Source: an uncultured Gammaproteobacteria bacterium (GTDB lineage: Bacteria; Patescibacteriota; Microgenomatia; UBA12405). From it: a stretch of 64,000 nucleotides of DNA. A program made the translations under genes and the position numbers. Below, in pieces: positions 1,297 to 54,545 of the stretch (the stretch's first letter is position 1; each line of letters begins with the position of its first letter). The notes below the pieces were generated by a model, which did not search any database, was not told where the DNA came from, and saw only the letters and a program-made list of their open reading frames with translations. Location of the stretch: positions 73,384 through 137,383 of the forward strand of contig CAYUZS010000003.1 of the NCBI GenBank assembly GCA_964448705.1, given 5' to 3'.

Positions 1297-1305
1297 AATA
1301 TCTGC

Positions 1306-1845
1306 ATGGATAGACTTAATTCGCATCAACTTCGTAAAAGCAGAGTAGGGGAGGCTCAAAAAAAACAGTCCGAAATTAAACGATTTCCATTAGTCATTGT
1401 TTTAGATAATGTACTGGATACCTACAATATCGGTTCTTTTTTTCGTCTTGCCGACGCTCTTGGAGCCGAAAAATTATGTCTTTGCGGCCCTGTCGTCACC
1501 CCTCCGAATTTAAAAATTCATCGCAGCAGTATCGGCACTTGGAAATGGGTCCCTTGGCAGCATTATAATTCCACAGTCGAGTGTCTAAATCAGCTTAAAA
1601 AAGATGGATATCAAATAATTGCCTGTGAACAAGGTAAAAATACCGTTAATTATAAAAAAGCCAAATATAATTTTCCTCTAGCCATAGTTGCCGGCAGCGA
1701 ATCAAACGGAGTGGGGGAGTCTGTTCAAAAAATTTGTCATCAGATAGTCGAGATTCCCATGCATGGGATAAACAAATCTCTTAATGTCCTGGTTGCCACT
1801 TCAATTATCGCCTTTGAAGCCATCAATAAAATCACCCAAAAATAG
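1306..1845 (+). CDS. SpoU/TrmH-family RNA 2'-O-methyltransferase
   Basis: SPOUT motifs: NIGSFFRLADALG, AIVAGSESNGV, EIPMHGINKSLNV. Confidence 0.7.
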   Translation: MDRLNSHQLRKSRVGEAQKKQSEIKRFPLVIVLDNVLDTYNIGSFFRLADALGAEKLCLCGPVVTPPNLKIHRSSIGTWKWVPWQHYNSTVECLNQLKKDGYQIIACEQGKNTVNYKKAKYNFPLAIVAGSESNGVGESVQKICHQIVEIPMHGINKSLNVLVATSIIAFEAINKITQK

Positions 1846-1995
1846 GTAGTTTTTGACCTTAATTTTCCCCGTTTTTAAAAGCTTTTTTGATATATTTTTA
1901 TGCAGTGAAATTACCTATTTTTCCAGTAAATTTGCTTATTGCCAGCCTATTTTAATGTGTTACACTAACATTATCTCAATAAATAGACATTTTTT

Positions 1996-31053: not shown

Positions 31054-32277
31054 TTAATATAGCTGACTCTGTCTTTCACTTAACGATAACATCAGCAGAG
31101 ATAAATCCTGGGATTCCAGCTTACAGTTACCGTTCAAATCAGCTAACATATAACCACCTGTCCCAACTTCAGTTCTTTTAATCGATTCAGTCTTTACAAA
31201 AGAAAAGTCCAAACCGTCCACTACTCCATCTTGGCTTTCAGCAGTAGTGCCTGTCACATCGCCGGATAACAACGGATAACCGGTAAAATCAAAATTCTGG
31301 GTCGTCGCGGCGGAATTTGTCAGTCCGGATAATTCCCCTCCGGCTTTTTCGTAATAATCTGACTGATTATTAACTCCGTACTTCACTTGTAAATGTTTTG
31401 GACTCTTCACAAACACAGCCAAATTGTCGGTTGAATTGAAATTTCCCATATCTAATAAGATTTGGTAAACACCCAAACCATTTTTGTTTTCTTCTAGTTT
31501 ATTTGCAATCACATTTTCAAATACTTTGCTGGTGCCATTAGCTGCTCTTACTGTCACAGTTAAAGGCATATCCTGGGCGTCAGTACAATTATAATCAGCC
31601 CTCATTCCCAAAAAAGACATTTTGAATTTTAGTTGTAGACCTGTTTGCGTCGGTACCTGTGTTGGGGTCGGAGATAACGTCATTACTTGTGTTGGAGTCG
31701 GTGATGGTTGTTGTTCATTAACCAGATCCACAATTTCATAGCTTGTTCCCTCAACGCCTGTTACAGTGATATTTTTGTCGGTGTCACTCGCAGAGTTATC
31801 CCCTGTCATCATCGATTTTGTTTTATCAAGTTTTATTAGTCCCGAACCAAGACTGTTGCCTTTAAAAGTCATCGTCAAAGCTTTGCCTGTTGATAATAGT
31901 TGGTCTGCTGATCTCGATGAAGTTACCACTATCGTGGTACAAGTTTGGTCGGCGACATCGTTGGTTGCCATTATCGGACTGTCTCCAAACCCTGATTCAG
32001 TGTTGGGAACAACGCTTTCCAGGCTAATATTTTTTCCGTAACAAACTGTCGTCTGTACTCCGTCAACTTTAGAATCACTGGAAGTGTAATACCATAATTG
32101 TGTTTGGAAAGTACCTCCAACCACATCCCTGATCTTTGCCCCTGGTAAGACTTTCAAAGTTGAAGTGTCAAATGCCGCCCCTTTTCTCATCTCCTGATTT
32201 TGGTTTACCAAAACAAGACCTCCGACTAAAGCGCCTAAAATCAATAGTATTGGCAATATTATTTTCGTTTTTGTCAT
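31054..32277 (-). CDS. membrane-anchored protein with N-terminal cohesin-like and C-terminal dockerin-like modules
   Basis: TM helix then LVNQNQEMRKGA, a cohesin-like N-terminal domain and PT linkers. C-terminus has DGVVDGLDFS and ADLNGNCKLESQDLS. Confidence 0.5.
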   Translation of the reverse strand: MTKTKIILPILLILGALVGGLVLVNQNQEMRKGAAFDTSTLKVLPGAKIRDVVGGTFQTQLWYYTSSDSKVDGVQTTVCYGKNISLESVVPNTESGFGDSPIMATNDVADQTCTTIVVTSSRSADQLLSTGKALTMTFKGNSLGSGLIKLDKTKSMMTGDNSASDTDKNITVTGVEGTSYEIVDLVNEQQPSPTPTQVMTLSPTPTQVPTQTGLQLKFKMSFLGMRADYNCTDAQDMPLTVTVRAANGTSKVFENVIANKLEENKNGLGVYQILLDMGNFNSTDNLAVFVKSPKHLQVKYGVNNQSDYYEKAGGELSGLTNSAATTQNFDFTGYPLLSGDVTGTTAESQDGVVDGLDFSFVKTESIKRTEVGTGGYMLADLNGNCKLESQDLSLLMLSLSERQSQLY

Positions 32278-32283
32278 TTATTT

Positions 32284-34269
32284 TTATAAACCATTTATAA
32301 AGTTTGTTCTCCAAATAGAGATATCATTTATTGTAATCAAACCATCACAGTCAAAATCTGCCCGCCAATCATTTCTATTAACTTCTCCCAGCTGTCCAGT
32401 AATGAATTCTGATCTCCAAATTGATGCATCATTAATGGTGATTGAACCACTGCAGTCAGCATTTCCTTTCCCTTTTGCCGTCGGATCATTGGCGCATTGA
32501 GTACATTTAAGTGGTAAAGCCGGACAGGCAGTCATATCTGTTGTCCAGGTACCGTTGGCTGATGGACAACAATATTGTCTGCCGCCGCAGGATGCTATTA
32601 GTTTTGCAGCACTACAAATTGTTTCATTAGCTGTACCGTCACTATCCGGAGGAGTGCAGCTTCGCAGGACACTTTGATTAAATCCGTTTGCATTAGTAAT
32701 TCCCGGACACTCTTCACGGCAGCTGTTTCCTGATCCTGTTGTTGGTGTTGCTGTTGGTGTTCTTCCGCCACCGGTTGTTGGTGTTGCGGTAGGTAATCTT
32801 ATTGAACCGCTAGTTGGAGTTAATGTTCTGGTTGGGGTTAATGTTCTGGTTGGACTTAATATTCTGGTTGGAGTTGGAGTATTACATGGATGGTCCAACA
32901 GATTTCCACAGCCTGTACCGGAATAATATCCACCAATGCATCTACAAGTTGCTGTCGGCACTGCAGTTACCGTAATTTGTCGACAACATATTCCTCCGGC
33001 AATTATTCCTGTTCTTTCATAGCCGGATCCGCAGTCAGAAATTCCGTATCGGGCCGTTGATCCGCTGGGACATGAACCTGCTAAAGTTGGAGTTGCTGTC
33101 GGTCTGCGTGTCGGAGTTGCTGTTGGTCTGGTTGTCAGAGTCGGAGTTCGTGGTATACAGCATCTTGAAGACGGAGAAGAACAATTGCTTTGTCCGACAT
33201 CAGTTTCTCCGCTGTTGCATGGTGTCCGACACACTCCAGTTGTGCCATTATACTGACAGTTATTCACCGGGGTTTGTTCACAACAAATTCCACCGGCAAT
33301 ATTTCCTGTCTTATCGTAACCCGAACCGCAATCGGAAATTCCGTATCGGGCTGTTGAACCGCTGGGACAAGCTGCTAAATTACAATCACCAGTGGAAGCG
33401 TTACACGAAGTGCTGCAGGTTTTCACAAATGTCCAAAATTTATTTGTCGACATATTGGCCTGGTTACAGTGATACAGATCATTTCCGGTGCATTTATAGG
33501 CATTTAGAGTACTACAAGCTGAAGAAGTTGGGGTCGGAGTTAAAGCTCTACAACAAATTCCCCCGGCAATTGTTCCTTCGTTTTTATATCCGGATCCGCA
33601 GTCTAGAATTCCGTATCGGGCTGTTGAACCGCTGGGACAAGCCGCTAAATTACAATCAGCTATTGAGGAATTACATGAAGTGCTGCAGGTTTTCACAAAT
33701 GTCCAGAATTTATTTGTCGACATGCTGGCTTGATTGCAGTGATAGAGGTCGTTTCCGGTACATTTATAGGTATTAACTGTACTACAAGCTGAAGAAGTTG
33801 GACCTGCCGTCGGTGCTCTGGTCGGAGTTAATGTTGCTGTTGCACAGCTGGAATCACTGACACAATTTGAAGCCGGACAAGCCGAACTGGAATTTATTGT
33901 TACTGTTGAGGAGTTACATTTCCCACTGCCGCAAGTTCTAACTGTACACTGTCTAGTTGCTGGAGTCGCTGTCGGGTTAACTACTGGCCTTTTACAAATA
34001 CAGGTGGCATAAGAACCGGAACCCGTACAGTCTTGCGGAGTAAATCCGGGACAACATGACAAACCGTTAGCATAAGTTCCACCCTCTGGGACACAGTAAG
34101 ACGCCAAATTTCTGGTATCCTGGTTATTTTGCACCAATTTTGTCGCTGCCGGAACCGCAATTGCCATCAGCAATAAGCCAATTAACAGAGGAATTTCTGC
34201 CAAACCTTTATTTTTCTTAAAAAAAACTGAAAACATTTTTTCTTGTAAAGAATGAGTCATTTTCGACAA
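32284..34269 (-). CDS. large Cys-rich repeat surface protein with PT-rich linkers and C-terminal dockerin
   Basis: 661 aa. TM helix then LVQNNQDTRNLA, two 90-aa tandem Cys-rich units and three CPSGSTARYGxxDCGSGY...IAGGICC modules. C-terminal dockerin repeats NADCSGSITINDASIW and DFDCDGLITINDISIW. Confidence 0.6.
   Translation of the reverse strand: MSKMTHSLQEKMFSVFFKKNKGLAEIPLLIGLLLMAIAVPAATKLVQNNQDTRNLASYCVPEGGTYANGLSCCPGFTPQDCTGSGSYATCICKRPVVNPTATPATRQCTVRTCGSGKCNSSTVTINSSSACPASNCVSDSSCATATLTPTRAPTAGPTSSACSTVNTYKCTGNDLYHCNQASMSTNKFWTFVKTCSTSCNSSIADCNLAACPSGSTARYGILDCGSGYKNEGTIAGGICCRALTPTPTSSACSTLNAYKCTGNDLYHCNQANMSTNKFWTFVKTCSTSCNASTGDCNLAACPSGSTARYGISDCGSGYDKTGNIAGGICCEQTPVNNCQYNGTTGVCRTPCNSGETDVGQSNCSSPSSRCCIPRTPTLTTRPTATPTRRPTATPTLAGSCPSGSTARYGISDCGSGYERTGIIAGGICCRQITVTAVPTATCRCIGGYYSGTGCGNLLDHPCNTPTPTRILSPTRTLTPTRTLTPTSGSIRLPTATPTTGGGRTPTATPTTGSGNSCREECPGITNANGFNQSVLRSCTPPDSDGTANETICSAAKLIASCGGRQYCCPSANGTWTTDMTACPALPLKCTQCANDPTAKGKGNADCSGSITINDASIWRSEFITGQLGEVNRNDWRADFDCDGLITINDISIWRTNFINGL
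33256..33795 (-). repeat. two tandem ~270-nt coding repeats inside the Cys-rich protein gene
   Basis: aa 159-248 and aa 249-338 are near-identical. DNA blocks such as ATTCCGTATCGGGCTGTTGAACCGCTGGGACAAGC recur. A third partial copy lies at 32983-33072. Confidence 0.85.
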
Positions 34270-41420: not shown

Positions 41421-43297
41421 AGTTATCTTCATCGCTCACAGTCGCAGTTATCACCTGTCGTCGTCCCAAACTTCTTAAACGTTGTCTTTTTAGTTTTTTA
41501 AAACAAAAAACTGCTTTAAGAATTATTATTATTGACAACGATTATCAACAGACTTCAAAAAAAATTTGTCAATCATTCTCAAAAAAGCTGTCTTTAAAAT
41601 ACTTGGTCTGTCCGATAAAAAGTATCCCCAGGGCAAGAAGTTTAGCCATTGAATCCTGTGAAACTAATTATTTGGCTTTTATCGACGACGATTGCTGTAT
41701 CGATCGTCACTGGTCAGAAATTGCCCGGGAACTCATTTCCGCCAATCCAAACACCGCCTATTGGCAGGGACAAACTTATCCTCCCGCCAAACCTTCCTTG
41801 CTTGATTCTGCCCATTTCCAAATCTATTCCCAATGGCTGCTTCATCCCCACCAGGGATTGGATACAAAAAATATCATTATTAATTTATCTGTGGTCAAAA
41901 AATATCATCTTTCTTTTGACCCCAACTTTCCAATCTTTGAGGATATAGATTTTGGCCTTCAACTGAATCAGCATCATCTTTCCGGAATGTTTATCCCTAA
42001 ATTAATAGTCAGCCACCATGAATATATAAAATTGTTCCCATTAATCCGAAAATATTTTTATCGCGGTCAAATCAAATTTGCTATCAATCAAAAATGGGGC
42101 AATTTTGATAACTATCAGCCTACTCTCGACTTCTTTACCATCATTAAAAAATTAGCTACCAACTTTTTCAAAGCACTTCTGGAAATTTCATTTGACTCTG
42201 GTTTCAAATATGCCCAAAAGTATCAGATTCTTCCCAACGACAACCATCTTTCTATAATAAATCGCCATGACCGGGGAGCCAACCAAGAACGCCTTGAAGC
42301 CATAACTAATTTTCTCCACAAAAACAATTTTCAGGTAACCAATATTGATTCGGAAAAAATTCTTCTCGATTGCCAATTGCATCGACGTCAGTTCTTAAAA
42401 GAAAATCCCCTAGCCTACCTATTAATTCATTTATCTCTACTTAATAATCCACCTTTCAGATATTTTTTTAGCCTACTTCTTCGCGGTTATCTTCTCAATT
42501 TTTATCTTCATCGTTTGCATACCAAAAAAGTAATTTCTCAATATTCCGAAGACATTTTTGTCGCCATATATCCACACCGCTTTCAACTTATCCTTGATTT
42601 ACCGACCATTTTTTCTGAAGAATTAAAACTCAGTCACCGGCTGCCTCTACCGATTATTAATATAATAACCCGTCTGGAAAACCTCGCCTATTCCAAAGCC
42701 GATCATACTTGCTTCCATTGGTCCGGCTTTCTTAATTATGCACGTAAAATTGGAAAAAAAATTCCAAACAGTTTTATCCTCAACTGGGGGTGTAATTCAG
42801 TTTCAAAAGTAGCTGTATTTAAAAAACATCCCAAAATAATTTATCTTGGCGATTTTACTTCACCTTGGACCAATCCCTCATTACTACTCAGACTGCAGAA
42901 AACATCTTCTATCGACATTTTTAGCTATCAAACTTCATCCAAATTTAAAACCAAAGGCTATTTAAAAAATCTCCAAAAACTCAGCCTTTATCAATTTGGT
43001 CTAATAACTATCACCAATGATCCGCTCAGAAACAATGGTTTTTCTGCCAAGTACTTAAAATATCTTGAGCATGGTCTACCGGTTCTTTGCCCTGAATGGC
43101 GTCGGGATCCCCTGCTAAAACCAGCCACCATTTACTATAATGAAAGAAATTTTGTCAAACAGCTTAAAAAATATTCTCAAAAAAAACTTTGGTTAAAAAA
43201 ACACCAAGCTGCCCTAAGAATTTCCAAAAATTTAAATTGGAACAAAACTCTACTTCCATTGTTACCGAAAATTAATTCATCTAAAAATGAATATTAG
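41417..43297 (+). CDS. GT2-family glycosyltransferase fused to a ~350-aa uncharacterised C-terminal domain
   Basis: N-terminal VAVITCRRPKLL...IIIIDND...AFIDDDC (GT-A DxD). The C-terminal half was not recognised. Confidence 0.65.
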   Translation: MKLSSSLTVAVITCRRPKLLKRCLFSFLKQKTALRIIIIDNDYQQTSKKICQSFSKKLSLKYLVCPIKSIPRARSLAIESCETNYLAFIDDDCCIDRHWSEIARELISANPNTAYWQGQTYPPAKPSLLDSAHFQIYSQWLLHPHQGLDTKNIIINLSVVKKYHLSFDPNFPIFEDIDFGLQLNQHHLSGMFIPKLIVSHHEYIKLFPLIRKYFYRGQIKFAINQKWGNFDNYQPTLDFFTIIKKLATNFFKALLEISFDSGFKYAQKYQILPNDNHLSIINRHDRGANQERLEAITNFLHKNNFQVTNIDSEKILLDCQLHRRQFLKENPLAYLLIHLSLLNNPPFRYFFSLLLRGYLLNFYLHRLHTKKVISQYSEDIFVAIYPHRFQLILDLPTIFSEELKLSHRLPLPIINIITRLENLAYSKADHTCFHWSGFLNYARKIGKKIPNSFILNWGCNSVSKVAVFKKHPKIIYLGDFTSPWTNPSLLLRLQKTSSIDIFSYQTSSKFKTKGYLKNLQKLSLYQFGLITITNDPLRNNGFSAKYLKYLEHGLPVLCPEWRRDPLLKPATIYYNERNFVKQLKKYSQKKLWLKKHQAALRISKNLNWNKTLLPLLPKINSSKNEY

Positions 43298-44360
43298 TAA
43301 AAAAATTAAATCAACCGGAATCAATCTCTCCATTTGGTGGCAGAATCTTTTAATAAAAGTCTCTCTCAATCTTAATAAACCTCTAAACAAACCTACTTCC
43401 ATTACTTTTGACCTAACTCCAAATTGTGTTCTAAAATGCAAGCAATGCGATATTTGGAAAAGTCCTCCAGAAACACAACTCTCACTAAAAGAAGCTAAAA
43501 TTATCATTGACCGGCTTCACTCTTGGTTAGGTAGTTGCTACCTCTTTTTTACCGGCGGTGAACCGTTAACAAACACAGACCTACCCGAAATAATTGGTTA
43601 TGCCTACAGAAAAGGCATCCTTTCTCACATCAACAGTAATGCCGTCCTGATAGACAAGTCACTGGCAAAAAAACTCACTCTAAACCACCTTTATGCTATT
43701 TCCATCTCTCTTGATGGGGCTACAGCCAAAACTCACGATTATCTCCGTGGTGTTTCAGGAACATTCGATAAAGTCATCAAAGCTATTAATTATCTTCAAA
43801 AAACAACTCATTCTCCTAAAATTTACATCAATACAGTCATAATGAAAAATAACACTATGGAATTAGAAAAATTAATAGAACTAACCAAAAAATACCACAC
43901 TAACGGCATTATGTTTCAATGTTTACTTCCCAATCTCGGACAAAACAGTGTCAAAGCTATTTCCAAAAACAATCCTTTATGGCCAAACAAAACTAAAATT
44001 ACAGCCGTTATAAAAAGGATTATCCAAAAAACCTCTTCTGAACCTCTTATTCTAAGTTCCAAACAGGATTTGGAAACCTCTCTGAAATATTATAAAAATC
44101 CCGGACTATTTAATAAATTTGTCTGTGCCGCCGGAATAAATAATTTTATTGTTGATCATCATGGAGACGTTAGGCTTTGTTTCGACTTTCCTGCTATCGG
44201 AAATATTATCAGGGAAAACCCCCAATCTATCTGGTGGAGCCAAAAAGCTGTTACCCAGCGTCAACAAATCCGCCACTGTCAACGAAATTGCAAGCTTATT
44301 GCCTGTAACAAAGCTGATACTGCCAGAAATAAAACTGTCGCTGCTAATCTTTTTGAATAA
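43287..44360 (+). CDS. radical SAM enzyme with SPASM/twitch-like C-terminal Cys cluster
   Basis: CVLKCKQC (CxxxCxxC) at aa ~46-53. C-terminal CAAG...GDVRLC...HCQRNCKLIAC. Confidence 0.75.
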   Translation: MNISKKIKSTGINLSIWWQNLLIKVSLNLNKPLNKPTSITFDLTPNCVLKCKQCDIWKSPPETQLSLKEAKIIIDRLHSWLGSCYLFFTGGEPLTNTDLPEIIGYAYRKGILSHINSNAVLIDKSLAKKLTLNHLYAISISLDGATAKTHDYLRGVSGTFDKVIKAINYLQKTTHSPKIYINTVIMKNNTMELEKLIELTKKYHTNGIMFQCLLPNLGQNSVKAISKNNPLWPNKTKITAVIKRIIQKTSSEPLILSSKQDLETSLKYYKNPGLFNKFVCAAGINNFIVDHHGDVRLCFDFPAIGNIIRENPQSIWWSQKAVTQRQQIRHCQRNCKLIACNKADTARNKTVAANLFE

Positions 44361-45015
44361 TTCCTACTCCCGGATCCTCTAATATCTCGAATAGTTTGTA
44401 TTTTCCTGAGTCTTTAATTTCTTTCCAAAATTTTCTGGTTCCATAAAAGTTTCCATCCTTGTCCGGACTTCCGATATCATGGATCGCCAAAAATCCGCCT
44501 TTTTCCACATTCTGCCAGAACATTTCAAAATCTTTTTTCACCCCTGTATAAGAATGGTCGCCGTCAATATGAACGTAACCATATTTTATTTTTTCATTTT
44601 TTGCGTAATATTCATCTGATTTCATCACCCTCAATTTTATATACTTCTCCAAACCAAATTTTCCAAAATGTTTTTTTTCATCTACCTTCTTCCAAAAACC
44701 AACTCCTCCCCAATGTTCTCCAGCAACTTTATCATAATCATCCATATCAAATCCGGCATCAACAAAATCAACTAAACCCATCCCGTTATCTTTGCACGCC
44801 AAAGCGCATACGGCCGGAATATATCCGTATTTACTGCCAACACATAGTACCTTATCCGGTCTGATTTGCCTAATCAGTGAATAATGGATCCAGCCATAAC
44901 CTAAACCTCCCCGATTGTTATCCCAGTGATGCCAATTGTCATCTTTTGCATAATTCTCAATAAATTTCCTGACATTTTTCTTATCTATTAAATCTTTTGT
45001 CCCGCTGAATATCAT
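44344..45015 (-). CDS. class I SAM-dependent methyltransferase (Methyltransf_24/CmcI-like)
   Basis: VLCVGSKYGY...VHIDGDHSYTGVKKDFEMFWQNVEKGGFLAIHD. Confidence 0.55.
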   Translation of the reverse strand: MIFSGTKDLIDKKNVRKFIENYAKDDNWHHWDNNRGGLGYGWIHYSLIRQIRPDKVLCVGSKYGYIPAVCALACKDNGMGLVDFVDAGFDMDDYDKVAGEHWGGVGFWKKVDEKKHFGKFGLEKYIKLRVMKSDEYYAKNEKIKYGYVHIDGDHSYTGVKKDFEMFWQNVEKGGFLAIHDIGSPDKDGNFYGTRKFWKEIKDSGKYKLFEILEDPGVGIIQKD

Positions 45016-45041: not shown

Positions 45042-46196
45042 ATGCTTTCAACCTTCTTCAAATCATCTCCATCCAAACCAATCGACTTTTCTTTTTTTCC
45101 CTCCTTAAATCAAAATCTTTTTATCCATTCCACCCCTTTTTTTCTAACAAATAAATCAATTGTAAAAAATCGTTTACTAGAACTGCATCAAACAATGTCT
45201 CAATTTCACCTGGCTCAGGCAAAAATTGCCTACTCATTCAAAACCAATTACGACGTCGCCAAAAATATCAGATTTGACATGGCTGAAGTTGTTTCTCAAA
45301 GAGAATTAAAAATGTCACTCCATAATCACTACCATTATTCACAAATTATTTTTAATGGACCAAACAAAGGCAATTTTCTTCCACTTTTGTACCGTCCAAT
45401 CACTCTCAACCTTGACCATTTTTCTGAAATTGAAAATCTTCCTCCATACTCCTCAAAAATAACCGCTAAAATTGGTCTCCGTTTTAACTCACTCTCCTCA
45501 CCTAGTCGTTTTGGCTTCAATCTTGAAAACGGCCAAGCCAGCCAAGCATTTTCTCTTTTAAAACAGAAAAAATACCCCCTTTCCGGAATCCACTTTCATC
45601 TTGGCAGCGATATTCAAAACTCTGACCTCTATCAGCAATGTTCTCTGGCCATTTCTTCCTTCATCAAAAAACACCATCTCTTTGCTGACCTTGTTTATAT
45701 CGACTTTGGTGGTGGTTTTCCCTCACACGGTTTAATCCACCAAACCGACATCCAATCTTTACCAAAGATATCGAATTATATTAATAGTATCGTTCAACCA
45801 CTGTCCAAAATTGTTGATTTTTCTAAGACAGAAATTATTCTGGAACCCGGTAGATATTTAGTCGACGACTCAACTGTCATGATAACCAAAGTTCTTAGCA
45901 CTATTGAAACTAGTAACCATCAGTTAATTACTGTCGATGCTGCAAACACTATGTTGCCCTCAACATGGTATCGACGCCATCTAATCAAAAATTTATCTGC
46001 GAATAATAACTTTAAAACTATAGAAACAATTATTTATGGCAGCAGCTGCCAGGAAACAGACATTTTATATCGCGGAAAATTCCAAAAGGTTTCTATTGGA
46101 GACCTTCTTGTTTTTTATTGTGTTGGTGCCTACAATCAAAGTCAAACTTCTTCGTTTATTTTTAATAAACCCAAAACCTATTTTATATATGACTAA
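45042..46196 (+). CDS. PLP-dependent decarboxylase, Orn/DAP/Arg decarboxylase (fold III) family
   Basis: AYSFKTNYD (PLP Lys), HFHLGS, DFGGGFP, EPGRYLV and GSSCQETD. Confidence 0.75.
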   Translation: MLSTFFKSSPSKPIDFSFFPSLNQNLFIHSTPFFLTNKSIVKNRLLELHQTMSQFHLAQAKIAYSFKTNYDVAKNIRFDMAEVVSQRELKMSLHNHYHYSQIIFNGPNKGNFLPLLYRPITLNLDHFSEIENLPPYSSKITAKIGLRFNSLSSPSRFGFNLENGQASQAFSLLKQKKYPLSGIHFHLGSDIQNSDLYQQCSLAISSFIKKHHLFADLVYIDFGGGFPSHGLIHQTDIQSLPKISNYINSIVQPLSKIVDFSKTEIILEPGRYLVDDSTVMITKVLSTIETSNHQLITVDAANTMLPSTWYRRHLIKNLSANNNFKTIETIIYGSSCQETDILYRGKFQKVSIGDLLVFYCVGAYNQSQTSSFIFNKPKTYFIYD

Positions 46197-46950
46197 AAGA
46201 TTTAATCACCACTATTTTACCCTCCTCTCTGTTATGACCAAAACAGAGTTTATGAGCCGTTACAAAAGGGCTATTTTTGGTTTTCTATGGTTGTTTCTTA
46301 ACCCACTCTTTCAAATGCTAATCATCGGTACTGTCTTCTCTCACTTTATTAGTCTTCCAAACTACTATTTGTTCCTCTTTGGAGGTCTCCTTTTATGGCA
46401 GTTCTTTTCCTCCTCAATCACCAAATCAACCTATAGCTTTGTTTCTAACCGAAATCTGCTTCAAAAAACTCCTTTTCCTTTAGAAATAATCCCTATCTCT
46501 ATTATTCTTGCTGATTATATTAATCTACTCTTTTCCCTTCTGCTTTTTCTAACGACCACCGCCTTTGTAACTGGTCTCTCCTTAAAAGCTCTCTTGATTA
46601 TTCCCATTCTGCTATGGCTGCTGACTTTCTCAGTTGCTTTCTCCTTAATCACTTCTACTCTTAATGTTCGTTTCCGCGATACCAACTTTTTTGTTAACAC
46701 TCTTCTCATGCTTTGGTTTTATGCCACTCCCATCCTCTATCAAACCAACAGTCTACCTGGGTTTCTACAAAAATATCTGATTATCAATCCTTTGGCTTCA
46801 CTTTTCTCCCTATTTCATTATATTTTCTTTAATGCTCCTTTTCCAAACACTATTCTTATAATCACTAATCTTTTTACCACCATTGTAATCTTATTTTTAG
46901 GTATTTTTCTTTTCCGAAAAAATTACTCCTATTTTGTTGATTGGTTATAA
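46189..46950 (+). CDS. ABC-2 type polysaccharide/teichoic-acid exporter permease (Wzm/TagG-like)
   Basis: Start at MTKRF (ATGACTAA overlap), FMSRYKRAIFGFLWLFLNPL signature and 6 TM helices. Confidence 0.75.
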   Translation: MTKRFNHHYFTLLSVMTKTEFMSRYKRAIFGFLWLFLNPLFQMLIIGTVFSHFISLPNYYLFLFGGLLLWQFFSSSITKSTYSFVSNRNLLQKTPFPLEIIPISIILADYINLLFSLLLFLTTTAFVTGLSLKALLIIPILLWLLTFSVAFSLITSTLNVRFRDTNFFVNTLLMLWFYATPILYQTNSLPGFLQKYLIINPLASLFSLFHYIFFNAPFPNTILIITNLFTTIVILFLGIFLFRKNYSYFVDWL

Positions 46951-46954
46951 AACT

Positions 46955-47956
46955 ATGTCAAAAGTTATTAAAATAAAACATTTATCCAAAAAATATTCTC
47001 TTCATTCTTCAAAACCCACTTTGATTGAACAGTTAAACCCAAAAGATAAAATTTACTGGGCTCTTAAAGACATTAACCTTACTGTAGAATCCGGAGAACG
47101 TGTCGGTTTTTTTGGTCCAAACGGTGCTGGTAAAACTACTCTACTCAAAATAATTTCCCACATTACCACTCCTGCTTCAGGAACAGTCACCACTAGTGGA
47201 AAAATAATTTCTCTAATTGAATTAACCGCTGGTTTTGACCAAGAGCTTACCGGTTATGAAAATATCAAACTTCAATTGGCACTTATGGCCGATTTCAATC
47301 AGGACCAAACCTCTCAGGTTATTTCAGACTGTATAAATTTTTCGGAACTATCAGATTTTATTCATCAACCGCTTTATACCTATTCCTCCGGTATGATTCT
47401 TCGTCTGGCTTTTTCGATTGCAACAGTCATTCCTGCTGATATTTTCATCGTTGACGAATTTTTGGCAGTTGGGGACACCGAATTTAAAAGTAAATGTGCC
47501 GAATATTTCAATCAACTTAAACTAAGTCATAAGACTATTCTTGCCTCCTCTCACGATCTTCAATGGCTGATTTCTTTTTGTGATAAGGTATACCCTATCA
47601 ATCATGGTCGCCTTGATCGGGAAAATTTTGTCACCCCCCAACATCTGGAATTCTTTCGGCGATCCCTCCAAAAAAACAGTTCTTCTGTCACGGTTACTAC
47701 CGGCAGTATGCTACCAACTCTTAATATTGGTCAGGTTGTTCCAATTAAAAATATCTCTTTCTCTAAAATAAAACCCGGCGACATTATTGCCTTCATGTTT
47801 ACCAATTTTCCTCAACCTATTGTTCATCGGGTAATCGCCATTGGCATCAACAACCGCCAACCTATTTTAGTTACCAAAGGAGACGCCCACAGCCAACCGG
47901 ACTCCTGGATGGTCACCAAAAAAGAATATCTTGGAATTATTCAATTTAATCACTAA
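46955..47956 (+). CDS. ABC transporter ATP-binding protein (Wzt/TagH-like) fused to a C-terminal S26B (archaeal/SipW-type) signal-peptidase domain
   Basis: Walker A GPNGAGKTT, signature YSSGMILRLAF and Walker B IFIVDEFLAVGD. C-terminal ~100 aa carry TGSMLPTL, PGDIIAF, IVHRVI and TKGDAHSQPD. Confidence 0.75.
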   Translation: MSKVIKIKHLSKKYSLHSSKPTLIEQLNPKDKIYWALKDINLTVESGERVGFFGPNGAGKTTLLKIISHITTPASGTVTTSGKIISLIELTAGFDQELTGYENIKLQLALMADFNQDQTSQVISDCINFSELSDFIHQPLYTYSSGMILRLAFSIATVIPADIFIVDEFLAVGDTEFKSKCAEYFNQLKLSHKTILASSHDLQWLISFCDKVYPINHGRLDRENFVTPQHLEFFRRSLQKNSSSVTVTTGSMLPTLNIGQVVPIKNISFSKIKPGDIIAFMFTNFPQPIVHRVIAIGINNRQPILVTKGDAHSQPDSWMVTKKEYLGIIQFNH

Positions 47957-48914
47957 GTCTGTCCTTTATTTTCACATACATTGTCTCCCAAAACTCGCCT
48001 AACTTTTCAGCACTTTTCCTTATTCCTAGCCGAAGTTTCATCTCTGGAAATATCTTTTCAGTCATTTTTTCTTTCTTCCGTGAAATTTTCATTCTTTCAA
48101 AAACATCCGCCCTTTGTTTACAGGAAGAACATACCCCGCAAGGATACTTGTTTCCATTTGTACAGCTCCAAGTCTTTTCCAAAGGCAGACAATATTTTTT
48201 TCCCATTTCTACCACCTCTTCTTTTTCCATCCAGTTTCCAAACTGAGGCTCAAAAAATAGTGAATAATATTCAAAATTGGTATCGTCTCCAATCTCCCGA
48301 ATCAAATCTTGATATAACCTAATTCGGCTTAATGTCTGGCCTTTTATGGTTAACCCGTCAGTCGGTAATATCGCGGTTAAAATTGTCTTTACGGTTATAT
48401 CGTACCGGTATTTCAAATAAAAAGAATATTGTAATGCATAAATTGGGTATTGATAGAGAATATCCGGCAATAACCAAAACGACATCTTATTATTTACTAC
48501 TTGTGACAATAAATATTTATGATGAAAAAATTTTCCTGGTTTAATCATCCTGTATTCTTCCAAAATATTAGCAGGATAGGTATAAACATCCATTTCTTTT
48601 ACCGGCCAACTTAAACCCGGATATTTTTTTTGAAAATATTTATCAAAAAATTTCACCGATCTAGTGCTACCATTAAGGTTACCTCTCGTATATTTCTGTC
48701 TAATATAAACCGGATACACTTTTGTTCCATTACAAAGTAGATATTCCCATAACACAGTCGAGTCGATGCCTCCGGAAACCAACAGTATCGCCTCGTCCAA
48801 ATTCAAGTAATCTTTTAAGTTTCTATTTATTTCACTTTTATCAACTTTTTCAATCGGATTATCTTTTAACCTCTTTCGAAATTCACTTGAAGAAATCCTT
48901 GCTATTTGATTCAT
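47946..48914 (-). CDS. QueC/ExsB-like PP-loop ATPase
   Basis: PP-loop LLVSGGIDST. C-terminal QueC-type Cys cluster TWSCTNGNKYPCGVCSSCKQRADVF. Large insertions relative to QueC. Confidence 0.6.
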   Translation of the reverse strand: MNQIARISSSEFRKRLKDNPIEKVDKSEINRNLKDYLNLDEAILLVSGGIDSTVLWEYLLCNGTKVYPVYIRQKYTRGNLNGSTRSVKFFDKYFQKKYPGLSWPVKEMDVYTYPANILEEYRMIKPGKFFHHKYLLSQVVNNKMSFWLLPDILYQYPIYALQYSFYLKYRYDITVKTILTAILPTDGLTIKGQTLSRIRLYQDLIREIGDDTNFEYYSLFFEPQFGNWMEKEEVVEMGKKYCLPLEKTWSCTNGNKYPCGVCSSCKQRADVFERMKISRKKEKMTEKIFPEMKLRLGIRKSAEKLGEFWETMYVKIKDRLSD

Positions 48915-49186
48915 TTTTCTTCTCTAATTATCCCAGTTTTAATACCTTTTTTCAAAAAAGACTTCACATCTTCCCTCGCCTCATCTTTTTCCACCTTATA
49001 GTGTTTATATAAAAAACTAACCATTTCTTCGATACTTTTTGGACTAACCAACAACTTCCATAAATCCACTGCCGTCCCTGAAAGAATCGTAATTCTCGAC
49101 TCACCTTCCACCGCAATCAACACCTCATCATTTCGATACTCGGAATAACATTTCTCCACCTTAACAAAAACATCCCTATCTCTCAT
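48911..49186 (-). CDS. PqqD-family peptide-binding protein (RiPP recognition element)
   Basis: 91 aa. ILSGTAVDLWKLLVSPKSIEEMVSFLYKHYKVEKDEAREDVKSFLKKGIKTGII matches the PqqD pattern. Confidence 0.7.
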   Translation of the reverse strand: MRDRDVFVKVEKCYSEYRNDEVLIAVEGESRITILSGTAVDLWKLLVSPKSIEEMVSFLYKHYKVEKDEAREDVKSFLKKGIKTGIIREEK

Positions 49187-49201
49187 GTTTTCCCATCCTT
49201 T

Positions 49202-49345
49202 TTATCTCGCACAAGCACAGGACGCACAGACACATGATCCATCGGGACACTGTTTGGGTGTTTCTCCACCACATGCCAAAACAGAATTTAAAGAAATCAC
49301 TTTAATCATCGGTTTTTGATAATCATTCCTATTTTGTTGCACCAT
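49202..49345 (-). CDS. candidate RiPP precursor peptide MVQQNRNDYQKPMIKVISLNSVLACGGETPKQCPDGSCVCASCACAR
   Basis: Hand-translated 47-aa ORF, below the track cutoff. Six Cys in the last 23 residues. Lies 15 nt upstream of the PqqD gene. Confidence 0.5.
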   Translation of the reverse strand: MVQQNRNDYQKPMIKVISLNSVLACGGETPKQCPDGSCVCASCACAR

Positions 49346-52697: not shown

Positions 52698-52946
52698 TCA
52701 CAGCTGGAATTGTCGGGTGTATCTTACCGGTCGGACATCTATCACTTCCCTCCCGGTTATCTTATCAATATAAGGTCCCGATACTGACGGACAACAACTT
52801 TCTCTGAAAGTTCCCATATCAATTGTGATTATCTCTTTCAGTGAAATATCGAAATTTTTTTGGCCCTGTTGTAAAGCTCTTAAATGAATCTCCGTTAGAC
52901 AATTTCCTAACGTTTGTTTGCATATTTCACATTTTTCAATTTTCAT
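52698..52946 (-). CDS. hypothetical small Cys-containing protein
   Basis: 82 aa with CEICKQTLGNC near the N-terminus. Last gene of the ORFan operon. Confidence 0.35.
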   Translation of the reverse strand: MKIEKCEICKQTLGNCLTEIHLRALQQGQKNFDISLKEIITIDMGTFRESCCPSVSGPYIDKITGREVIDVRPVRYTRQFQL

Positions 52947-52959
52947 ATTTTTGATTAAT

Positions 52960-53400
52960 TTATAATTTATTTTCTCTCGCTGAAATAAAAAATTTTCCTT
53001 TCTCCACCTTACTTCCCTGCATCACCGTTAATACCCCTTTATCAGTCCGTAAACACATTACCTCCGTAGTTTCATCTTCTTTAATTTTACCCCTAGTTTC
53101 ACAATATTCTTTATAATTTTTCCAGTCTTGTATTTTCCCCCCGATTTTTTTCCCGGTTAATCTTTTTATATATTCAAAAGTATCTTTCCTCATTTCACAA
53201 AGACTGCAATTAGGTTCCATTCCTCCGGCGAACGGACAAATCTTTCTCGGTACCTCTCCCCTTAAAACCGGACACTGTCCCAATACAAAATTTCTCGAAT
53301 CGAGGGCATCTTCATTTTCCATATATCTTAATACTTGATTTACACCTTCAATCGGCAGTGTTAAACAGTTAATTTCTATTGTTCGGCGGAATGTTGACAT
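52960..53400 (-). CDS. hypothetical Cys-rich protein
   Basis: 146 aa with CPVLRGEVPRKICPFAGGMEPNCSLC. Its start abuts the upstream stop. Confidence 0.4.
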   Translation of the reverse strand: MSTFRRTIEINCLTLPIEGVNQVLRYMENEDALDSRNFVLGQCPVLRGEVPRKICPFAGGMEPNCSLCEMRKDTFEYIKRLTGKKIGGKIQDWKNYKEYCETRGKIKEDETTEVMCLRTDKGVLTVMQGSKVEKGKFFISARENKL

Positions 53401-54545
53401 TACTGACCTCCCCCTGCAGAGATTTTTTTATATGTTTCATTTTTTATTTCCAAATATCTTTGCCTGCTGGCTGCGTTCGCGGCAGCAATCGCATTTCTTA
53501 CCTCTCTTGGAGTCATCGATAAGTCAGGTGATCCGCTAATTTCACCCAATAATCTGTATGTTGTATAAAGATTCAACCAGGATGCCGTCTGGATTGCTCC
53601 TGCCAAACCGGTAATTGCCAGCATTGGAATTGCCGTTCCTGCAACCAAATTTGCCTGTTGAGCCATCACTATCGATCTTGAAGCTGCTGCCATTGCCTGT
53701 ACTGCTGCCGTGTCAAACATATCTGTCGCAGTTGCCTGCAGCACTCCTTTAATCGCTTCATTTGATTCCTTAGCCATTATCGGTATTTTTGACAGCCTGG
53801 TTTTTTCCCTAACAATTTCTTTCGCTATCTCACTTACACTTCTATCCCCCATAGATAATGCCGCTATCATACCCTGTCCTAATTTAGAAAGGTTGTCCTG
53901 AATCTCTTTTACTTCTTTGTCCATACCTAATTGTTTATCATATTTATCGGCATTATCCGCCAATTTTGATCCGCTAGATTTTATTATTTTTCCTGCCGTT
54001 TCCAACATTTTTCCATTTCTCTCCACTGCCCTATCCAAACTGGTCATATTTTGCAATACTGCTTTTTTACTATCGGCCACCACCTTTACTAAATCCACCC
54101 AAGGTTCAAATATTATCGGATATTCTTTGGCTATCTTAGCCATATTTGAGCTACCTCTCTGTTTTGCCAGCGACTCACAAATCTCAAATGCTATTCTCGA
54201 TCTCTCTACCAAATCCTTATTCGGATCCATCACTTTTATCAAATCTTTAGTTGCCACACTCAAATCCACCGCTAAATTTCCACCGGCAATATTAACCTCT
54301 AAACATGTCTTAATTAAAGTCGCATAATAACTGCCGGATAATGCACTGGTATCTAATCCTGTTCCCAAACCCAGATTGGCCATTTCTTTAATCACCCACT
54401 GTTTCTGTTCAAACGTTTCTCTCGGTCCTCCGAATTTTTCAATTTCCTTGCTCTCAATCATTTGATCCCGCAAACTCAGCGCCACATTTTGCACCGGAGC
54501 CGGCTCCACAGTACGATTTCTTAATCTCTCAATAAAATTTGGCAT
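53400..54545 (-). CDS. hypothetical, predominantly helical protein with Ala-rich hydrophobic C-terminal segment
   Basis: 381-aa ORF. No family recognised by eye. Confidence 0.5.
   Translation of the reverse strand: MPNFIERLRNRTVEPAPVQNVALSLRDQMIESKEIEKFGGPRETFEQKQWVIKEMANLGLGTGLDTSALSGSYYATLIKTCLEVNIAGGNLAVDLSVATKDLIKVMDPNKDLVERSRIAFEICESLAKQRGSSNMAKIAKEYPIIFEPWVDLVKVVADSKKAVLQNMTSLDRAVERNGKMLETAGKIIKSSGSKLADNADKYDKQLGMDKEVKEIQDNLSKLGQGMIAALSMGDRSVSEIAKEIVREKTRLSKIPIMAKESNEAIKGVLQATATDMFDTAAVQAMAAASRSIVMAQQANLVAGTAIPMLAITGLAGAIQTASWLNLYTTYRLLGEISGSPDLSMTPREVRNAIAAANAASRQRYLEIKNETYKKISAGGGQ

Follow-up and report, generated by a model that had tools for sequence, protein, structure and literature searches.

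An ABC-2 exporter ATPase fused to a predicted anchor-free S26B signal-peptidase domain recurs in surface-glycan loci beside PqqD and QueC-like genes

For peptidase-containing ABC transporters (the PCAT/AMS proteins PCAT1, ComA, SunT, and LahT), leader removal is presumed to be coupled to export (PMC6959990, PMC10885120). The serine proteases listed in a 2023 review of RiPP leader peptidases belong to families S8 and S9, and the review names no S24/S26 enzyme and no signal peptidase. In the QueC family, Cap9 acts on protein termini and ligates a carboxylate to the N-terminal amine of a protein (bioRxiv 10.1101/2025.04.06.647259). Here we describe a gene in a 64,000-nucleotide stretch of a contig assigned to the Patescibacteriota (hereafter the window, meaning the whole stretch that was analyzed) in which the ATPase of an ABC transporter continues into a domain of the S26B signal peptidases, and we compare its locus with these and other systems. 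The features are collected in Table 1.

Table 1. Features of the fusion gene and its neighborhood (positions within the window).
Feature	Position	Strand	Description or basis
Complete fusion gene	46955..47956	+	333 aa: Wzt/TagH-type ABC ATPase, then C-terminal S26B peptidase domain
Nucleotide-binding domain, residues 1-225	46955..47629	+	ABC_tran, TagH/Wzt profiles, Foldseek
Linker helix, residues 228-240	47636..47674	+	AF2-model secondary structure and alignment
S26B peptidase domain, residues 238-333, without membrane anchor	47666..47953	+	TIGR02228, SEC11A/C, model fold
Ser251 codon, predicted nucleophile, in TGSMLPT	47705..47707	+	Invariant in alignments
His291 codon, predicted general base, in IVHRVI	47825..47827	+	Invariant in alignments
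Asp310 to Asp316, TKGD....D box	47882..47902	+	Both Asp invariant; aligns with the SEC11A KGDNN..DD box
ABC-2 (Wzm-type) permease partner	46189..46950	+	Stops 4 nt short of the ATPase start codon
QueC-like PP-loop ATP-pyrophosphatase	47946..48914	-	Convergent; overlaps the fusion-gene 3' end by 11 nt
PqqD-family peptide chaperone (RiPP recognition element)	48911..49186	-	Pfam PqqD, 3e-11
47-aa precursor peptide MVQQNRNDYQKPMIKVISLNSVLA/CGGETPKQCPDGSCVCASCACAR	49202..49345	-	ORF; also called as a gene in L002
PLP-dependent decarboxylase (Orn/DAP/Arg family)	45042..46196	+	Recurrent accessory gene
Methyltransf_24 methyltransferase	44344..45015	-	Recurrent accessory gene
Radical SAM/SPASM enzyme, possible peptide maturase	43287..44360	+	Not conserved across loci

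The open reading frame of the fusion gene has exact bounds, with an ATG at 46955 and a stop at 47956 on the forward strand; an alternative in-frame TTG start lies upstream, at 46934, and would give a protein of 340 aa. Every motif that a sequence-only reading of this DNA had quoted is present in the translation, namely GPNGAGKTT (Walker A), YSSGM (signature), and IFIVDEFLAVGD in the ATPase and TGSMLPTL, PGDIIAF, IVHRVI, and TKGDAHSQPD in the peptidase. The ATPase also has IFIVDE as its Walker B, AVGD as its D-loop, and SSHD as its H-loop. That the N-terminus is a nucleotide-binding domain, as had been proposed, was borne out by the Pfam ABC_tran match over residues 37-169 (E 5.7e-20). Its likeness to the Wzt/TagH type is indicated by the NCBIfam TagH and Wzt models, which match residues 1-222 as the best NCBIfam hits and which, with 144-165 bits, stay below the equivalog cut-offs of 320-538. 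With E-values of 1e-20, such domain matches lie far beyond what chance would give. The top Foldseek matches of the ATPase model are TarGH and the WzmWzt transporter of Aquifex, the latter with 42% identity. The permease encoded next to it matches Pfam ABC2_membrane (E 4.4e-19) and the NCBIfam Wzm/RfbD model (74.9 bits, below the cut-off), and an ABC-2 permease gene stands directly upstream in all fused loci that include upstream DNA.

We identified the C-terminal domain using profile searches and a structural model. The archaeal/SipW-type signal peptidase I model TIGR02228 scored 70.3 bits with the full protein and 73.3 bits with the domain alone (cut-off 51.85), aligning residues 238-327 with model positions 27-116 of 158, and Pfam Peptidase_S26 scored 24.8 bits over residues 243-296 (27.7 bits with the domain alone; cut-off 22.9). 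The bacterial S26A model TIGR02227 gave 29.6 bits, under its cut-off of 47. A phmmer search against PDB sequences matched human SEC11C (E 9e-6) and SEC11A (E 4e-5) in alignments that bring the Ser, His, and Asp motifs into register, and the predicted model of the domain (pLDDT 92.3) has an S24/S26 fold, so that the earlier assignment to S26B stands on profile and structural grounds alike. A carbohydrate-binding beta-sandwich module is excluded by this fold. The linker helix before the domain is the counterpart of the N-terminal helix in stand-alone S26B proteins of ~110 aa that lack a transmembrane (TM) segment.

Neither the 12 fusion proteins nor the 37 TM-less relatives that were aligned vary at Ser251, His291, Asp310, or Asp316. 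The sequence-only reading had made its peptidase claim depend on the catalytic Ser and His being conserved in homologs, and this is what we found. At position 291, the residue is His, as in S26B, versus Lys in S26A. Because Ser, His, and both Asp are invariant, catalysis is favored over binding alone, with Ser251/His291/Asp as the predicted triad. A hydropathy scan of the 333-aa protein found no membrane segment, in agreement with the earlier reading; the one hydrophobic stretch, at residue 146, belongs to the signature/Walker B core that is buried in the ATPase. The lack of a membrane anchor places the protein in the cytoplasm, and this topology argues against a translocated Sec signal peptide as its substrate. 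We read the gene product as the ATPase of an ABC-2 (Wzm/Wzt-like) exporter whose C-terminal accessory domain has given way to an anchor-free S26B peptidase that is predicted to be catalytically intact.

The fusion is real and recurrent. The identical protein is recorded on four contigs (NCBI and Logan sources), two of which, from two sequencing runs, were examined here, and the architecture is shared by 13 clusters that are 33-57% identical, made up of the window protein, nine other full-length proteins, and three N-truncated fragments. The nine other full-length clusters, at 34-40% identity, and the three fragments come from other metagenomes. The fusions were found by an exhaustive representative search; word-indexed domain and profile searches returned stand-alone S26 proteins and almost no fusions. 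When species-representative genome contigs were scanned with the full protein, only an unrelated ABC ATPase (21% identity) and no close relative was found. The ATPase cores of fused proteins and plain paralogs are 33-56% identical throughout, with no separate fused clade, and this comparison does not tell a single origin of the fusion from multiple origins. The members are named inconsistently, either “signal peptidase I” (the NCBI name of P0022) or “polysaccharide ABC transporter ATPase”, which is a practical annotation problem.

At its 3' end, the fusion gene meets an operon that encodes a QueC-like protein, a PqqD-family protein, and a small peptide. The QueC-like protein (about 320 aa) has an SGGIDS P-loop and a C-x8-C-x2-C-x2-C motif; Pfam QueC covers only its C-terminal part, the generic QueC model of PADLOC scores 62 bits, and the best PDB match is Cap9. 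Among NCBIfam models, the PqqD protein comes closest to the lasso-type PqqD (lasso_PqqD_Bac; 36 bits, below the cut-off). The link that the sequence-only reading had drawn to this tail-to-tail operon has held up well, as a PqqD and/or QueC-like gene lies convergently behind the fusion gene, whose 3' end it often overlaps, in nine of the 10 distinct fused loci (window/L002, L004, L005, L006, L008, L009, L012, L016, and L018). The exception, L007, has neither gene 3' of the fusion gene and has an AMP-binding_C_2 adenylating enzyme in place of the QueC-like gene. The same gene set is found around an unfused S26B protein in L013, where a separate 118-aa TM-less S26B is encoded along with a QueC-like protein, PqqD, Methyltransf_24, a PLP decarboxylase, a plain ABC ATPase, and an ABC-2 permease. 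The peptide and transporter operons run toward each other and are not co-transcribed.

Among the accessory genes, Methyltransf_24 occurs in eight of the 10 fused loci as well as in L013, and further loci with a PLP decarboxylase are L004, L006, L008, L013, and L016. A gene similar to the radical SAM/SPASM gene of the window was found in L007 only, and L018 has a B12-binding radical SAM gene. Protein P0273 is a fusion of a QueC-like protein with PqqD, and from this fusion, together with the Cap9 precedent, we infer that the QueC-like enzyme acts on the peptide. TM-less S26B relatives also occur with peptide genes: P0174 is encoded in a PqqD/radical-SAM peptide cassette together with a precursor of similar leader (EYKKPVVMKI), and such relatives also turn up in purely peptide-type cassettes that have no glycan genes (L014). 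All fused loci lie amid surface-glycan genes (glycosyltransferase, Wzy_C, or Bac_transf). In L006, a second, plain Wzm/Wzt-like pair stands beside the fused pair, which suggests that the fused pair is specialized.

Peptides of 22-56 aa with a common Y-x-x-P-x-x-K leader adjoin PqqD in eight loci (the window and seven other fused loci). An Ala lies 12-14 residues past the leader Pro in seven of these eight peptides. The sequence-only reading had pointed to a V-x-A site in the window peptide, and this proposal carries over to most of its homologs, with a candidate aliphatic-x-Ala site (V-L-A/C in the window) that fits six of the eight peptides. Such a site agrees with what type I signal peptidases prefer at -3/-1. 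The site is not universal: Ala is absent from the L016 peptide (…VIFPFLFPWET), and in that of L018 (…ALLA/PIPE) the residue at +1 of the candidate site is Pro, which in this position blocks classical type I signal peptidases. The A/C junction does look lipobox-like; a lipoprotein signal was rejected, as the leaders are shorter and more polar than such a signal would allow. Counted from the putative cleavage site, several homologous peptides have only 1-4 residues left. The peptides of five loci end 1-5 residues past the hydrophobic stretch (AAE, VAD, AAKS, PIPE, and PWET), and many peptides close in Glu or Asp 1-4 residues past it. With such short ends, a classical leader-plus-core RiPP is questionable, and cleavage could release as little as one modified residue. 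The peptides of the window and L004 have long Cys-rich cores that resemble conventional modified peptides. A precursor peptide was sought in the unfused L013 and in L007 and was not found in either; the L007 contig stops just upstream of the fusion gene.

On balance and with modest confidence, we lean toward a cytoplasmic leader or scaffold peptidase that is tethered to an ABC-2 exporter. PqqD would bind the leader of the small peptide and hand the peptide to the QueC-like enzyme, which, by the chemistry of its family, would adenylate a carboxylate. The methyltransferase, the PLP decarboxylase, and, here, also the radical SAM enzyme may modify the peptide further. Held under the transporter at the inner membrane face, the S26B domain is predicted to cut after a small residue behind the short hydrophobic stretch (V-L-A/C in the window), parting the leader or scaffold from a C-terminal product that the ABC-2 transporter would export as such or as a conjugate. 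Tethering would raise the local concentration and couple proteolysis to export. The architecture and the synteny across ten loci thus point to peptide trimming at the exporter by an apparently undescribed route. Several observations speak against this reading: the candidate site is not universal, the peptide ends are short, the peptide operon is not co-transcribed with the transporter operon, L007 has no QueC-like or PqqD gene behind its fusion gene, and the ATPase and the permease are nearest to glycopolymer exporters. Given this last likeness and the glycan genes around the loci, the cargo may be a glycan rather than a peptide.

A glycan cargo is the basis of an alternative that we consider unlikely but would still give some weight, in which the extra domain serves cargo recognition and decapping in a glycan exporter. 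A PqqD-guided QueC-like ligase would join the peptide to a lipid-linked glycan as a chain-end tag, and the S26B domain would recognize the tag, deliver the glycan to the Wzm/Wzt-like channel, and clip off most of the peptide. The peptide would be joined via its C-terminal or an acidic carboxylate and one or a few residues would stay on the exported polymer, a part of the scheme to which we give the same limited weight. The 42% identity of the ATPase to Aquifex Wzt, its best structural matches (WzmWzt and TarGH), the Wzm-like permease, and the position of the extra domain in the C-terminal place of the Wzt carbohydrate-binding domain all agree with this, as do the glycan genes around every locus. 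The frequent closing Glu/Asp of the peptides, the ligation of a carboxylate to an amine by the QueC-family Cap9, and the swap of the QueC-like gene for an adenylating enzyme in L007 can be read in the same way. However, the peptide-glycan conjugate is itself only a proposal, and the plain Wzm/Wzt pair of L006 could serve the glycan there. Moreover, the long Cys-rich cores of the window and L004 peptides are of the conventional modified type, and the cassette of L014 places a TM-less S26B relative in a purely peptide-type setting.

A related and rather unlikely proposal is that surface loci of Patescibacteria contain a so far undescribed peptide-dependent pathway made up of a ribosomal mini-peptide, PqqD, a QueC-family ATP-pyrophosphatase, and the S26B domain, with the peptide or its remnant of one to few residues serving as an export tag or terminal decoration of the glycan. 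The mini-peptide would run from the Y-x-x-P-x-x-K leader through a short hydrophobic stretch to a C-terminus that has either an acid or a Cys-rich tail; PqqD would bind it, the QueC-family enzyme would activate a carboxylate, and the S26B domain on the Wzt-like ATPase would recognize and cut it. If true, this would be a peptide counterpart of the O-antigen cap that is recognized by the carbohydrate-binding domain of Wzt, and an ABC-2 exporter gated by S26-type proteolysis would be seen for the first time.

The remaining alternatives fare worse. It is very unlikely that the domain is a self-cleaving or regulatory S24/LexA-like module that regulates the transporter by cutting its own linker or a partner other than the neighboring peptide. 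The base is the His of a VHRV box that is accompanied by the S26B GD...D box and not the Lys of an S24 Ser-Lys dyad, and Peptidase_S24 reaches only 14.9-17.1 bits (cut-off 23.3) while the S26B profile is above its cut-off. In addition, there is no conserved Ala-Gly or small-x-small site in the linkers of the 12 fusions, and the stand-alone relatives of 110 aa have nothing to release. An ordinary housekeeping type I signal peptidase, an inactive relic, or an annotation artefact from a frameshift between two genes is highly improbable despite the NCBI name of P0022 and the TIGR02228 score, as the outer membrane face, where Sec substrates are cut, is beyond the reach of an anchor-free active site on a cytoplasmic ATPase, the catalytic residues are invariant, and a frameshift or assembly artefact is excluded by the same ORF on contigs of independent runs and by the recurrence in 13 clusters at 33-57% identity. 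A role in anti-phage defense, within a system that centers on a QueC-family protein in the manner of QatABCD or type IV CBASS, would account for the Cap9 structural match and the PADLOC score of the neighbor, but this is just as improbable, as no locus has a Qat, CBASS, TGT-like, or nuclease partner and the constant partners are PqqD, the small peptide, the ABC-2 transporter, and glycan genes.

Our literature searches found no prior description that joins QueC with PqqD in RiPPs, nothing relevant on SipW with PqqD, and no papers on ScmC or SodX. A signal peptidase or S26 enzyme acting as a RiPP leader peptidase was likewise not described in the literature searched, where the matches were irrelevant (mostly figure numbers, SPase II, and arylomycin). 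A 2026 survey of the QueC family does not include the neighbor and nowhere mentions PqqD, RiPPs, or ABC transporters. The ATPase-S26B fusion is therefore apparently undescribed so far. If a tethered leader or scaffold peptidase is indeed its function, it would represent a second, evolutionarily independent way to couple proteolysis with ABC export. The known way pairs a type IV exporter with a C39 cysteine peptidase, and the new one would pair an ABC-2 ATPase with an S26B serine peptidase. It would also mean that the signal-peptidase-type enzymes, which textbooks present as extracytoplasmic membrane proteins, include a branch that is soluble, cytoplasmic, and devoted to chaperone-presented peptides, and that the ABC-2 permease, ATPase-S26B, PqqD, the QueC-like protein, the mini-peptide, Methyltransf_24, and the PLP decarboxylase form a conserved module. 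The recent finding of protein modification by QueC-family enzymes would be extended as well. The module is found in Patescibacteria, which depend on surface interactions with their hosts, so its product may bear on their envelope biology.

Compared with the PCAT/AMS proteins, the window system has in common that a protease is covalently attached to an ABC exporter on its cytoplasmic side and that the gene adjoins a small precursor peptide. It differs in that the protease is an S26B Ser/His peptidase (clan SF) rather than a papain-like Cys peptidase of family C39, is C-terminal on a stand-alone ATPase rather than N-terminal on a fused TMD-NBD polypeptide, and belongs to an ABC-2 (Wzm/Wzt-like) transporter with a separate permease, and that a PqqD recognition element is involved. 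A Pfam search of the fusion protein gave no C39 match at E <= 1, and the homologous peptides have no conserved GG, GA, or GS junction, their leaders mostly ending in Ala. The C39/PCAT analogy drawn in the sequence-only reading may therefore fit the topology but not the product, because the peptide ends are short and a glycan-type transporter lies in glycan loci, and the likeness in coupling leader removal to export would be one of function only. Like Wzt (A. aeolicus and E. coli O9a type) and TagH/TarH, the window system has a Wzt-like ATPase core with a Wzm-type permease, and, as in Wzt, an accessory domain lies C-terminal to the ATPase and the gene lies within a surface-glycan cluster. The accessory domain, however, is an S24/S26-fold peptidase and not the beta-sandwich glycan-binding module of Wzt, and the NCBIfam scores remain under the TagH and Wzt equivalog cut-offs.

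The peptidase domain shares its family, its Ser/His/Asp motifs, and its fold with the S26B peptidases (B. subtilis SipW, archaeal SPase I, and Sec11/SEC11A), but it has no N- or C-terminal anchor, covers only part of the family model, and is cytoplasmic and fused to an ATPase. The nickel superoxide dismutase (NiSOD) maturation protease SodX (TIGR02754) resembles the window domain in being a small anchor-less S26-family peptidase, and it offers a precedent, as it is soluble, works in the cytoplasm, and takes off an N-terminal propeptide behind an Ala. TIGR02754 weakly matches the TM-less relatives P0204 and P0001 and gave no match to the window domain at E <= 1; SodX is also unfused and acts on a folded enzyme precursor, whereas the window peptidase is fused to a transporter. 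Lasso-peptide machinery offers a further parallel, with a PqqD-type chaperone, a Y-x-x-P leader, a peptidase, a predicted carboxylate-activating PP-loop ATP-pyrophosphatase, and an ABC exporter. The components differ (S26B versus the transglutaminase-like B2, QueC-like versus the asparagine-synthetase-like C, and ABC-2 versus a type IV exporter), and the parallel is one of roles, which does not extend to a lasso fold. With Cap9 and QatC, the QueC-like neighbor shares the SGGxDS P-loop and the zinc motif, but it is much longer than Cap9 (~190 aa), and its partners are PqqD and a small peptide instead of CBASS or Qat components. By its PqqD-like element beside a short precursor with a conserved leader, the surrounding module would be classed with the RRE-dependent RiPP systems.

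The two-domain make-up of the fusion protein is confirmed far beyond chance, because the Pfam, NCBIfam, PDB-sequence and hydropathy results agree. The ORF is intact and lies exactly where the sequence-only reading had placed it, and all of the motifs quoted there are present in the translation. Its N-terminal part is nearest to the TagH and Wzt ATPases among NCBIfam models (144-165 bits, under the equivalog cut-offs), as had been proposed, and includes an ABC_tran domain (E 5.7e-20). The assignment of the C-terminal domain to S26B also stood up in profile searches, where the domain scored 70-73 bits with TIGR02228, the model of archaeal/SipW-type signal peptidase I (cut-off 51.85), and 24.8 bits with Peptidase_S26 (cut-off 22.9); the bacterial S26A model scored under its cut-off. 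A sequence search of PDB chains matched human SEC11C and SEC11A in an alignment that pairs the GSM, VHRV and KGD....D boxes. As claimed from the sequence, a hydropathy scan found no membrane segment, since the sole hydrophobic stretch is the signature/Walker B region, which is buried in the ATPase; the protein is cytoplasmic and both of its domains are intact.

Four contigs, drawn from NCBI and Logan and reaching 167.7 kb in length, are recorded as encoding exactly this 333-aa protein. With its C-terminal 109 aa as query, we searched 1.84 billion cluster representatives exhaustively by HMMER and obtained 3451 matches at E <= 1e-3. Thirteen clusters in the top 150 are ATPase-S26B fusions: P0006, which is the window protein, a further nine that are full-length (314-350 aa), and three fragments truncated at the N-terminus. 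One member is labelled as originating from a Patescibacteria group bacterium. The remaining long S26B matches in the top 150 are multi-pass membrane proteins, as in the classical topology. Identity to the window protein is only 33-57%, and Ser251, Met252, Pro254, His291, Arg292, Thr307, Gly309, Asp310, Asp316 and Trp318 are invariant in the alignment, so that the predicted catalytic Ser and His, whose loss would have told against the earlier assignment, are both conserved. Because of this recurrence at low identity with invariant residues, the architecture is rare but genuine, with purifying selection at the catalytic positions. Public names in the family are inconsistent, as P0022 is called 'signal peptidase I' and P0008 'ABC-type polysaccharide/polyol phosphate transport system ATPase subunit', each covering just half of the protein.

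Our census comprised ten distinct fused loci (the window, which is L002/L003; L004; L005; L006; L007; L008; L009-11; L012; L016/17; L018) and one split locus, L013. An ABC-2 permease lies immediately upstream of the fusion gene in all fused loci having upstream DNA. The suggested co-occurrence with QueC-like and PqqD genes proved general, as one or both are convergent with the fusion gene directly at its 3' end in nine of the ten. These 3' ends often overlap (L005, L008, L009 and L012, by 18-60 nt, besides the window); the overlap is kept at 33-40% protein identity and leaves no room for a terminator. The exception is L007, where a co-directional adenylating enzyme stands in the place otherwise held by the QueC-like gene, a hint that the carboxylate-activating step may have been taken over by a non-orthologous enzyme. 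Methyltransf_24 occurs in eight of the ten, and a PLP-dependent decarboxylase in five (Orn/DAP/Arg family in three, group II in two), with L009 having a FemAB-type gene instead. Every longer locus, the window included, is surrounded by glycosyltransferases, Wzy_C or Bac_transf genes. In L013, QueC-like, PqqD, two Methyltransf_24, group II decarboxylase and ABC-2 permease genes accompany a plain 240-aa ATPase, and the peptidase is a separate 118-aa anchor-less protein. Such a split counterpart of a fusion is classical evidence that the ATPase and the S26B peptidase, as judged from gene arrangement, would work together.

Coordinates of the features discussed and sequences of the small peptides adjoining PqqD
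Locus	Feature	Position	Strand	Detail
Window	Fusion ORF, ATG to stop	46955-47956	+	333 aa
Window	TagH/Wzt-like part (NCBIfam)	residues 1-222		
Window	ABC_tran (Pfam)	residues 37-169		
Window	TIGR02228 (NCBIfam)	residues 238-327		
Window	Peptidase_S26 (Pfam)	residues 243-296		
Window	3'-end overlap, fusion gene and QueC/PqqD operon	47946-47956		11 nt
Window	QueC-like/PqqD/mini-peptide trio	47946-49345	-	
Window	Two large ORFs, no Pfam match	31054-34269	-	407, 661 aa
Window	Three consecutive ORFs, no Pfam match	52698-54545	-	82, 146, 381 aa
L007	AMP-binding_C_2 (PaaK-like) enzyme	1139-2509		
L013	Anchor-less S26B protein	6001-6357		
L014	Anchor-less S26B protein	6001-6342		
Window	Peptide			MVQQNRNDYQKPMIKVISLNSVLACGGETPKQCPDGSCVCASCACAR
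L004	Peptide, N-terminal part omitted			…LYTKPLVEVINFKYIAIQACEYNSDCTSFPNGYCSGGACYYPN
L006	Peptide			MTKKKYIPPSHKSIALVGFLMACSSECG
L008	Peptide			MKKKKYIKPAAKKVTLKFFAAE
L009	Peptide, N-terminal part omitted			…GYSKPEAKKVKVKVVLALGAAKS
L012	Peptide			MKKRKKYYIKPSEKRVIMTALLVAD
L016	Peptide			MKKEAYVKPKIKRLSLKVIFPFLFPWET
L018	Peptide			MKKKYTAPSSKRVKIKALLAPIPE

A small ORF adjoins PqqD in eight fused loci, and all eight peptides share Y-x-x-P, followed in most of them by a basic residue with alternating aliphatic residues and then by a short hydrophobic stretch. In the lasso-peptide paradigm, a Y-x-x-P leader is bound by a PqqD-like element; the nearest curated model of the window PqqD is of the lasso type, with a score under its cut-off. 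Type I signal peptidases follow the -3/-1 rule, aliphatic-x-Ala. Seven of the eight peptides have an Ala 12-14 residues past the Pro and six fit aliphatic-x-Ala, while the L016 peptide has no Ala and that of L018 has Pro at +1 of the candidate site. In five loci the peptide ends 1-5 residues beyond the hydrophobic stretch, usually in Glu or Asp. The putative V-x-A site first seen in the window peptide thus reflects a real, though not universal, trend, and the 'core' is often tiny.

The window QueC-like enzyme retains the SGGIDS pyrophosphatase loop and a C-x8-C-x2-C-x2-C zinc motif, and QueC models match just its C-terminal 40-50 residues. Its homolog P0273 (415 aa) is a natural fusion with a C-terminal PqqD domain, which argues that the enzyme is peptide-directed. 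The best match among solved structures is Cap9, which employs QueC chemistry to join a carboxylate, once adenylated, to the N-terminal amine of a protein (bioRxiv 10.1101/2025.04.06.647259). The trio of QueC-like, PqqD and mini-peptide genes is also conserved in L004, L006, L009, L012 and L016, with the genes ordered either peptide-PqqD-QueC or QueC-peptide-PqqD, and is apparently an undescribed peptide-modification module; neither PqqD nor RiPPs nor ABC transporters appear in a 2026 survey of the QueC family.

Three S26-domain searches also fetched 34 anchor-less proteins of <=135 aa, typically ~110 aa, which share an N-terminal helix and keep the invariant Ser, His and Asp. All seven tested passed the TIGR02228 cut-off and are for that reason annotated as 'signal peptidase I'; no curated family is dedicated to them. 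The family is sizeable (P0001, P0041, P0155, P0156, P0174 and others). P0174 belongs to a PqqD/radical-SAM/ScmC-like peptide cassette with ABC transporters after it; the precursor in this cassette is Cys-rich, 39 aa long and has a similar leader (…EYKKPVVMKI…). Given these relatives, soluble S26B-type enzymes appear to form a wider, unnamed class tied to chaperone-presented peptides, of which the fusion appears to be one architecture.

We lean towards a mechanism in which PqqD would bind the peptide leader and the QueC-like enzyme would modify the C-terminal part, perhaps together in the window with a radical SAM/SPASM enzyme, a methyltransferase and a decarboxylase. The S26B domain, held beneath a Wzm-like channel, would cut after the small residue closing the hydrophobic stretch (V-L-A/C in the window), and the ABC-2 transporter would export the product. 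The main rival retains proteolysis and makes a glycan the cargo: the peptide would be a tag joined to the end of a lipid-linked polymer, and the domain replacing the Wzt cap-binding module would recognise and clip it. This would account for the Wzt-like transporter, the constant glycan gene context and the very short peptide tails, but a second, plain Wzm/Wzt-like pair adjoins the fused pair in L006 and competes, and we consider this reading improbable. We also disfavour a QueC-based defence system (PADLOC gave a generic QueC match alone, with no defence partners), a housekeeping signal peptidase, LexA-like self-cleavage by the S26B domain, and an artefactual fusion (the two contigs examined derive from two sequencing runs).

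Elsewhere in the window, GC skew on the + strand is -0.25 to -0.38 irrespective of gene orientation (8000-64000, whole window), with third-codon-position skews of -0.46 in + strand and +0.32 in - strand genes. Proteins encoded on the + strand have less G, A, V and E and more L, I, F, S, P, H and Q. So extreme a pattern suggests a very strong mutation bias between replication strands that reshapes protein composition. The stretch with the 407- and 661-aa ORFs is the sole one with GC 0.44 and near-zero skew (coding-strand skews of -0.01 and +0.12, vs ~+0.3 in neighbouring - strand genes), and may be a compositionally foreign insert. The 82-, 146- and 381-aa ORFs lie downstream of rpsB-tsf-frr, the first two being Cys-rich with CxxC-like pairs.

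Of the analogy drawn earlier to peptidase-containing ABC transporters, the way of working probably stands, while their defining features, the C39 domain, fused TMD-NBD and double-glycine leader, are all absent. The domain belongs to the S26B clade by sequence and fold but lacks the membrane anchor that functionally defines signal peptidases, and the ATPase resembles Wzt/TagH but lacks their carbohydrate-binding tail. Serine proteases of S8 and S9 are covered by a 2023 review of RiPP leader peptidases, from which S26, S24, SipW and signal peptidase are absent, and targeted full-text literature searches found no description of an ATPase-S26B fusion or a QueC-PqqD peptide system. On this comparison and literature, we rate the fusion as a variant of the peptidase-bearing ABC exporter and the RRE-dependent peptide pathway, and see a modest chance of the module as a whole being something more unusual.
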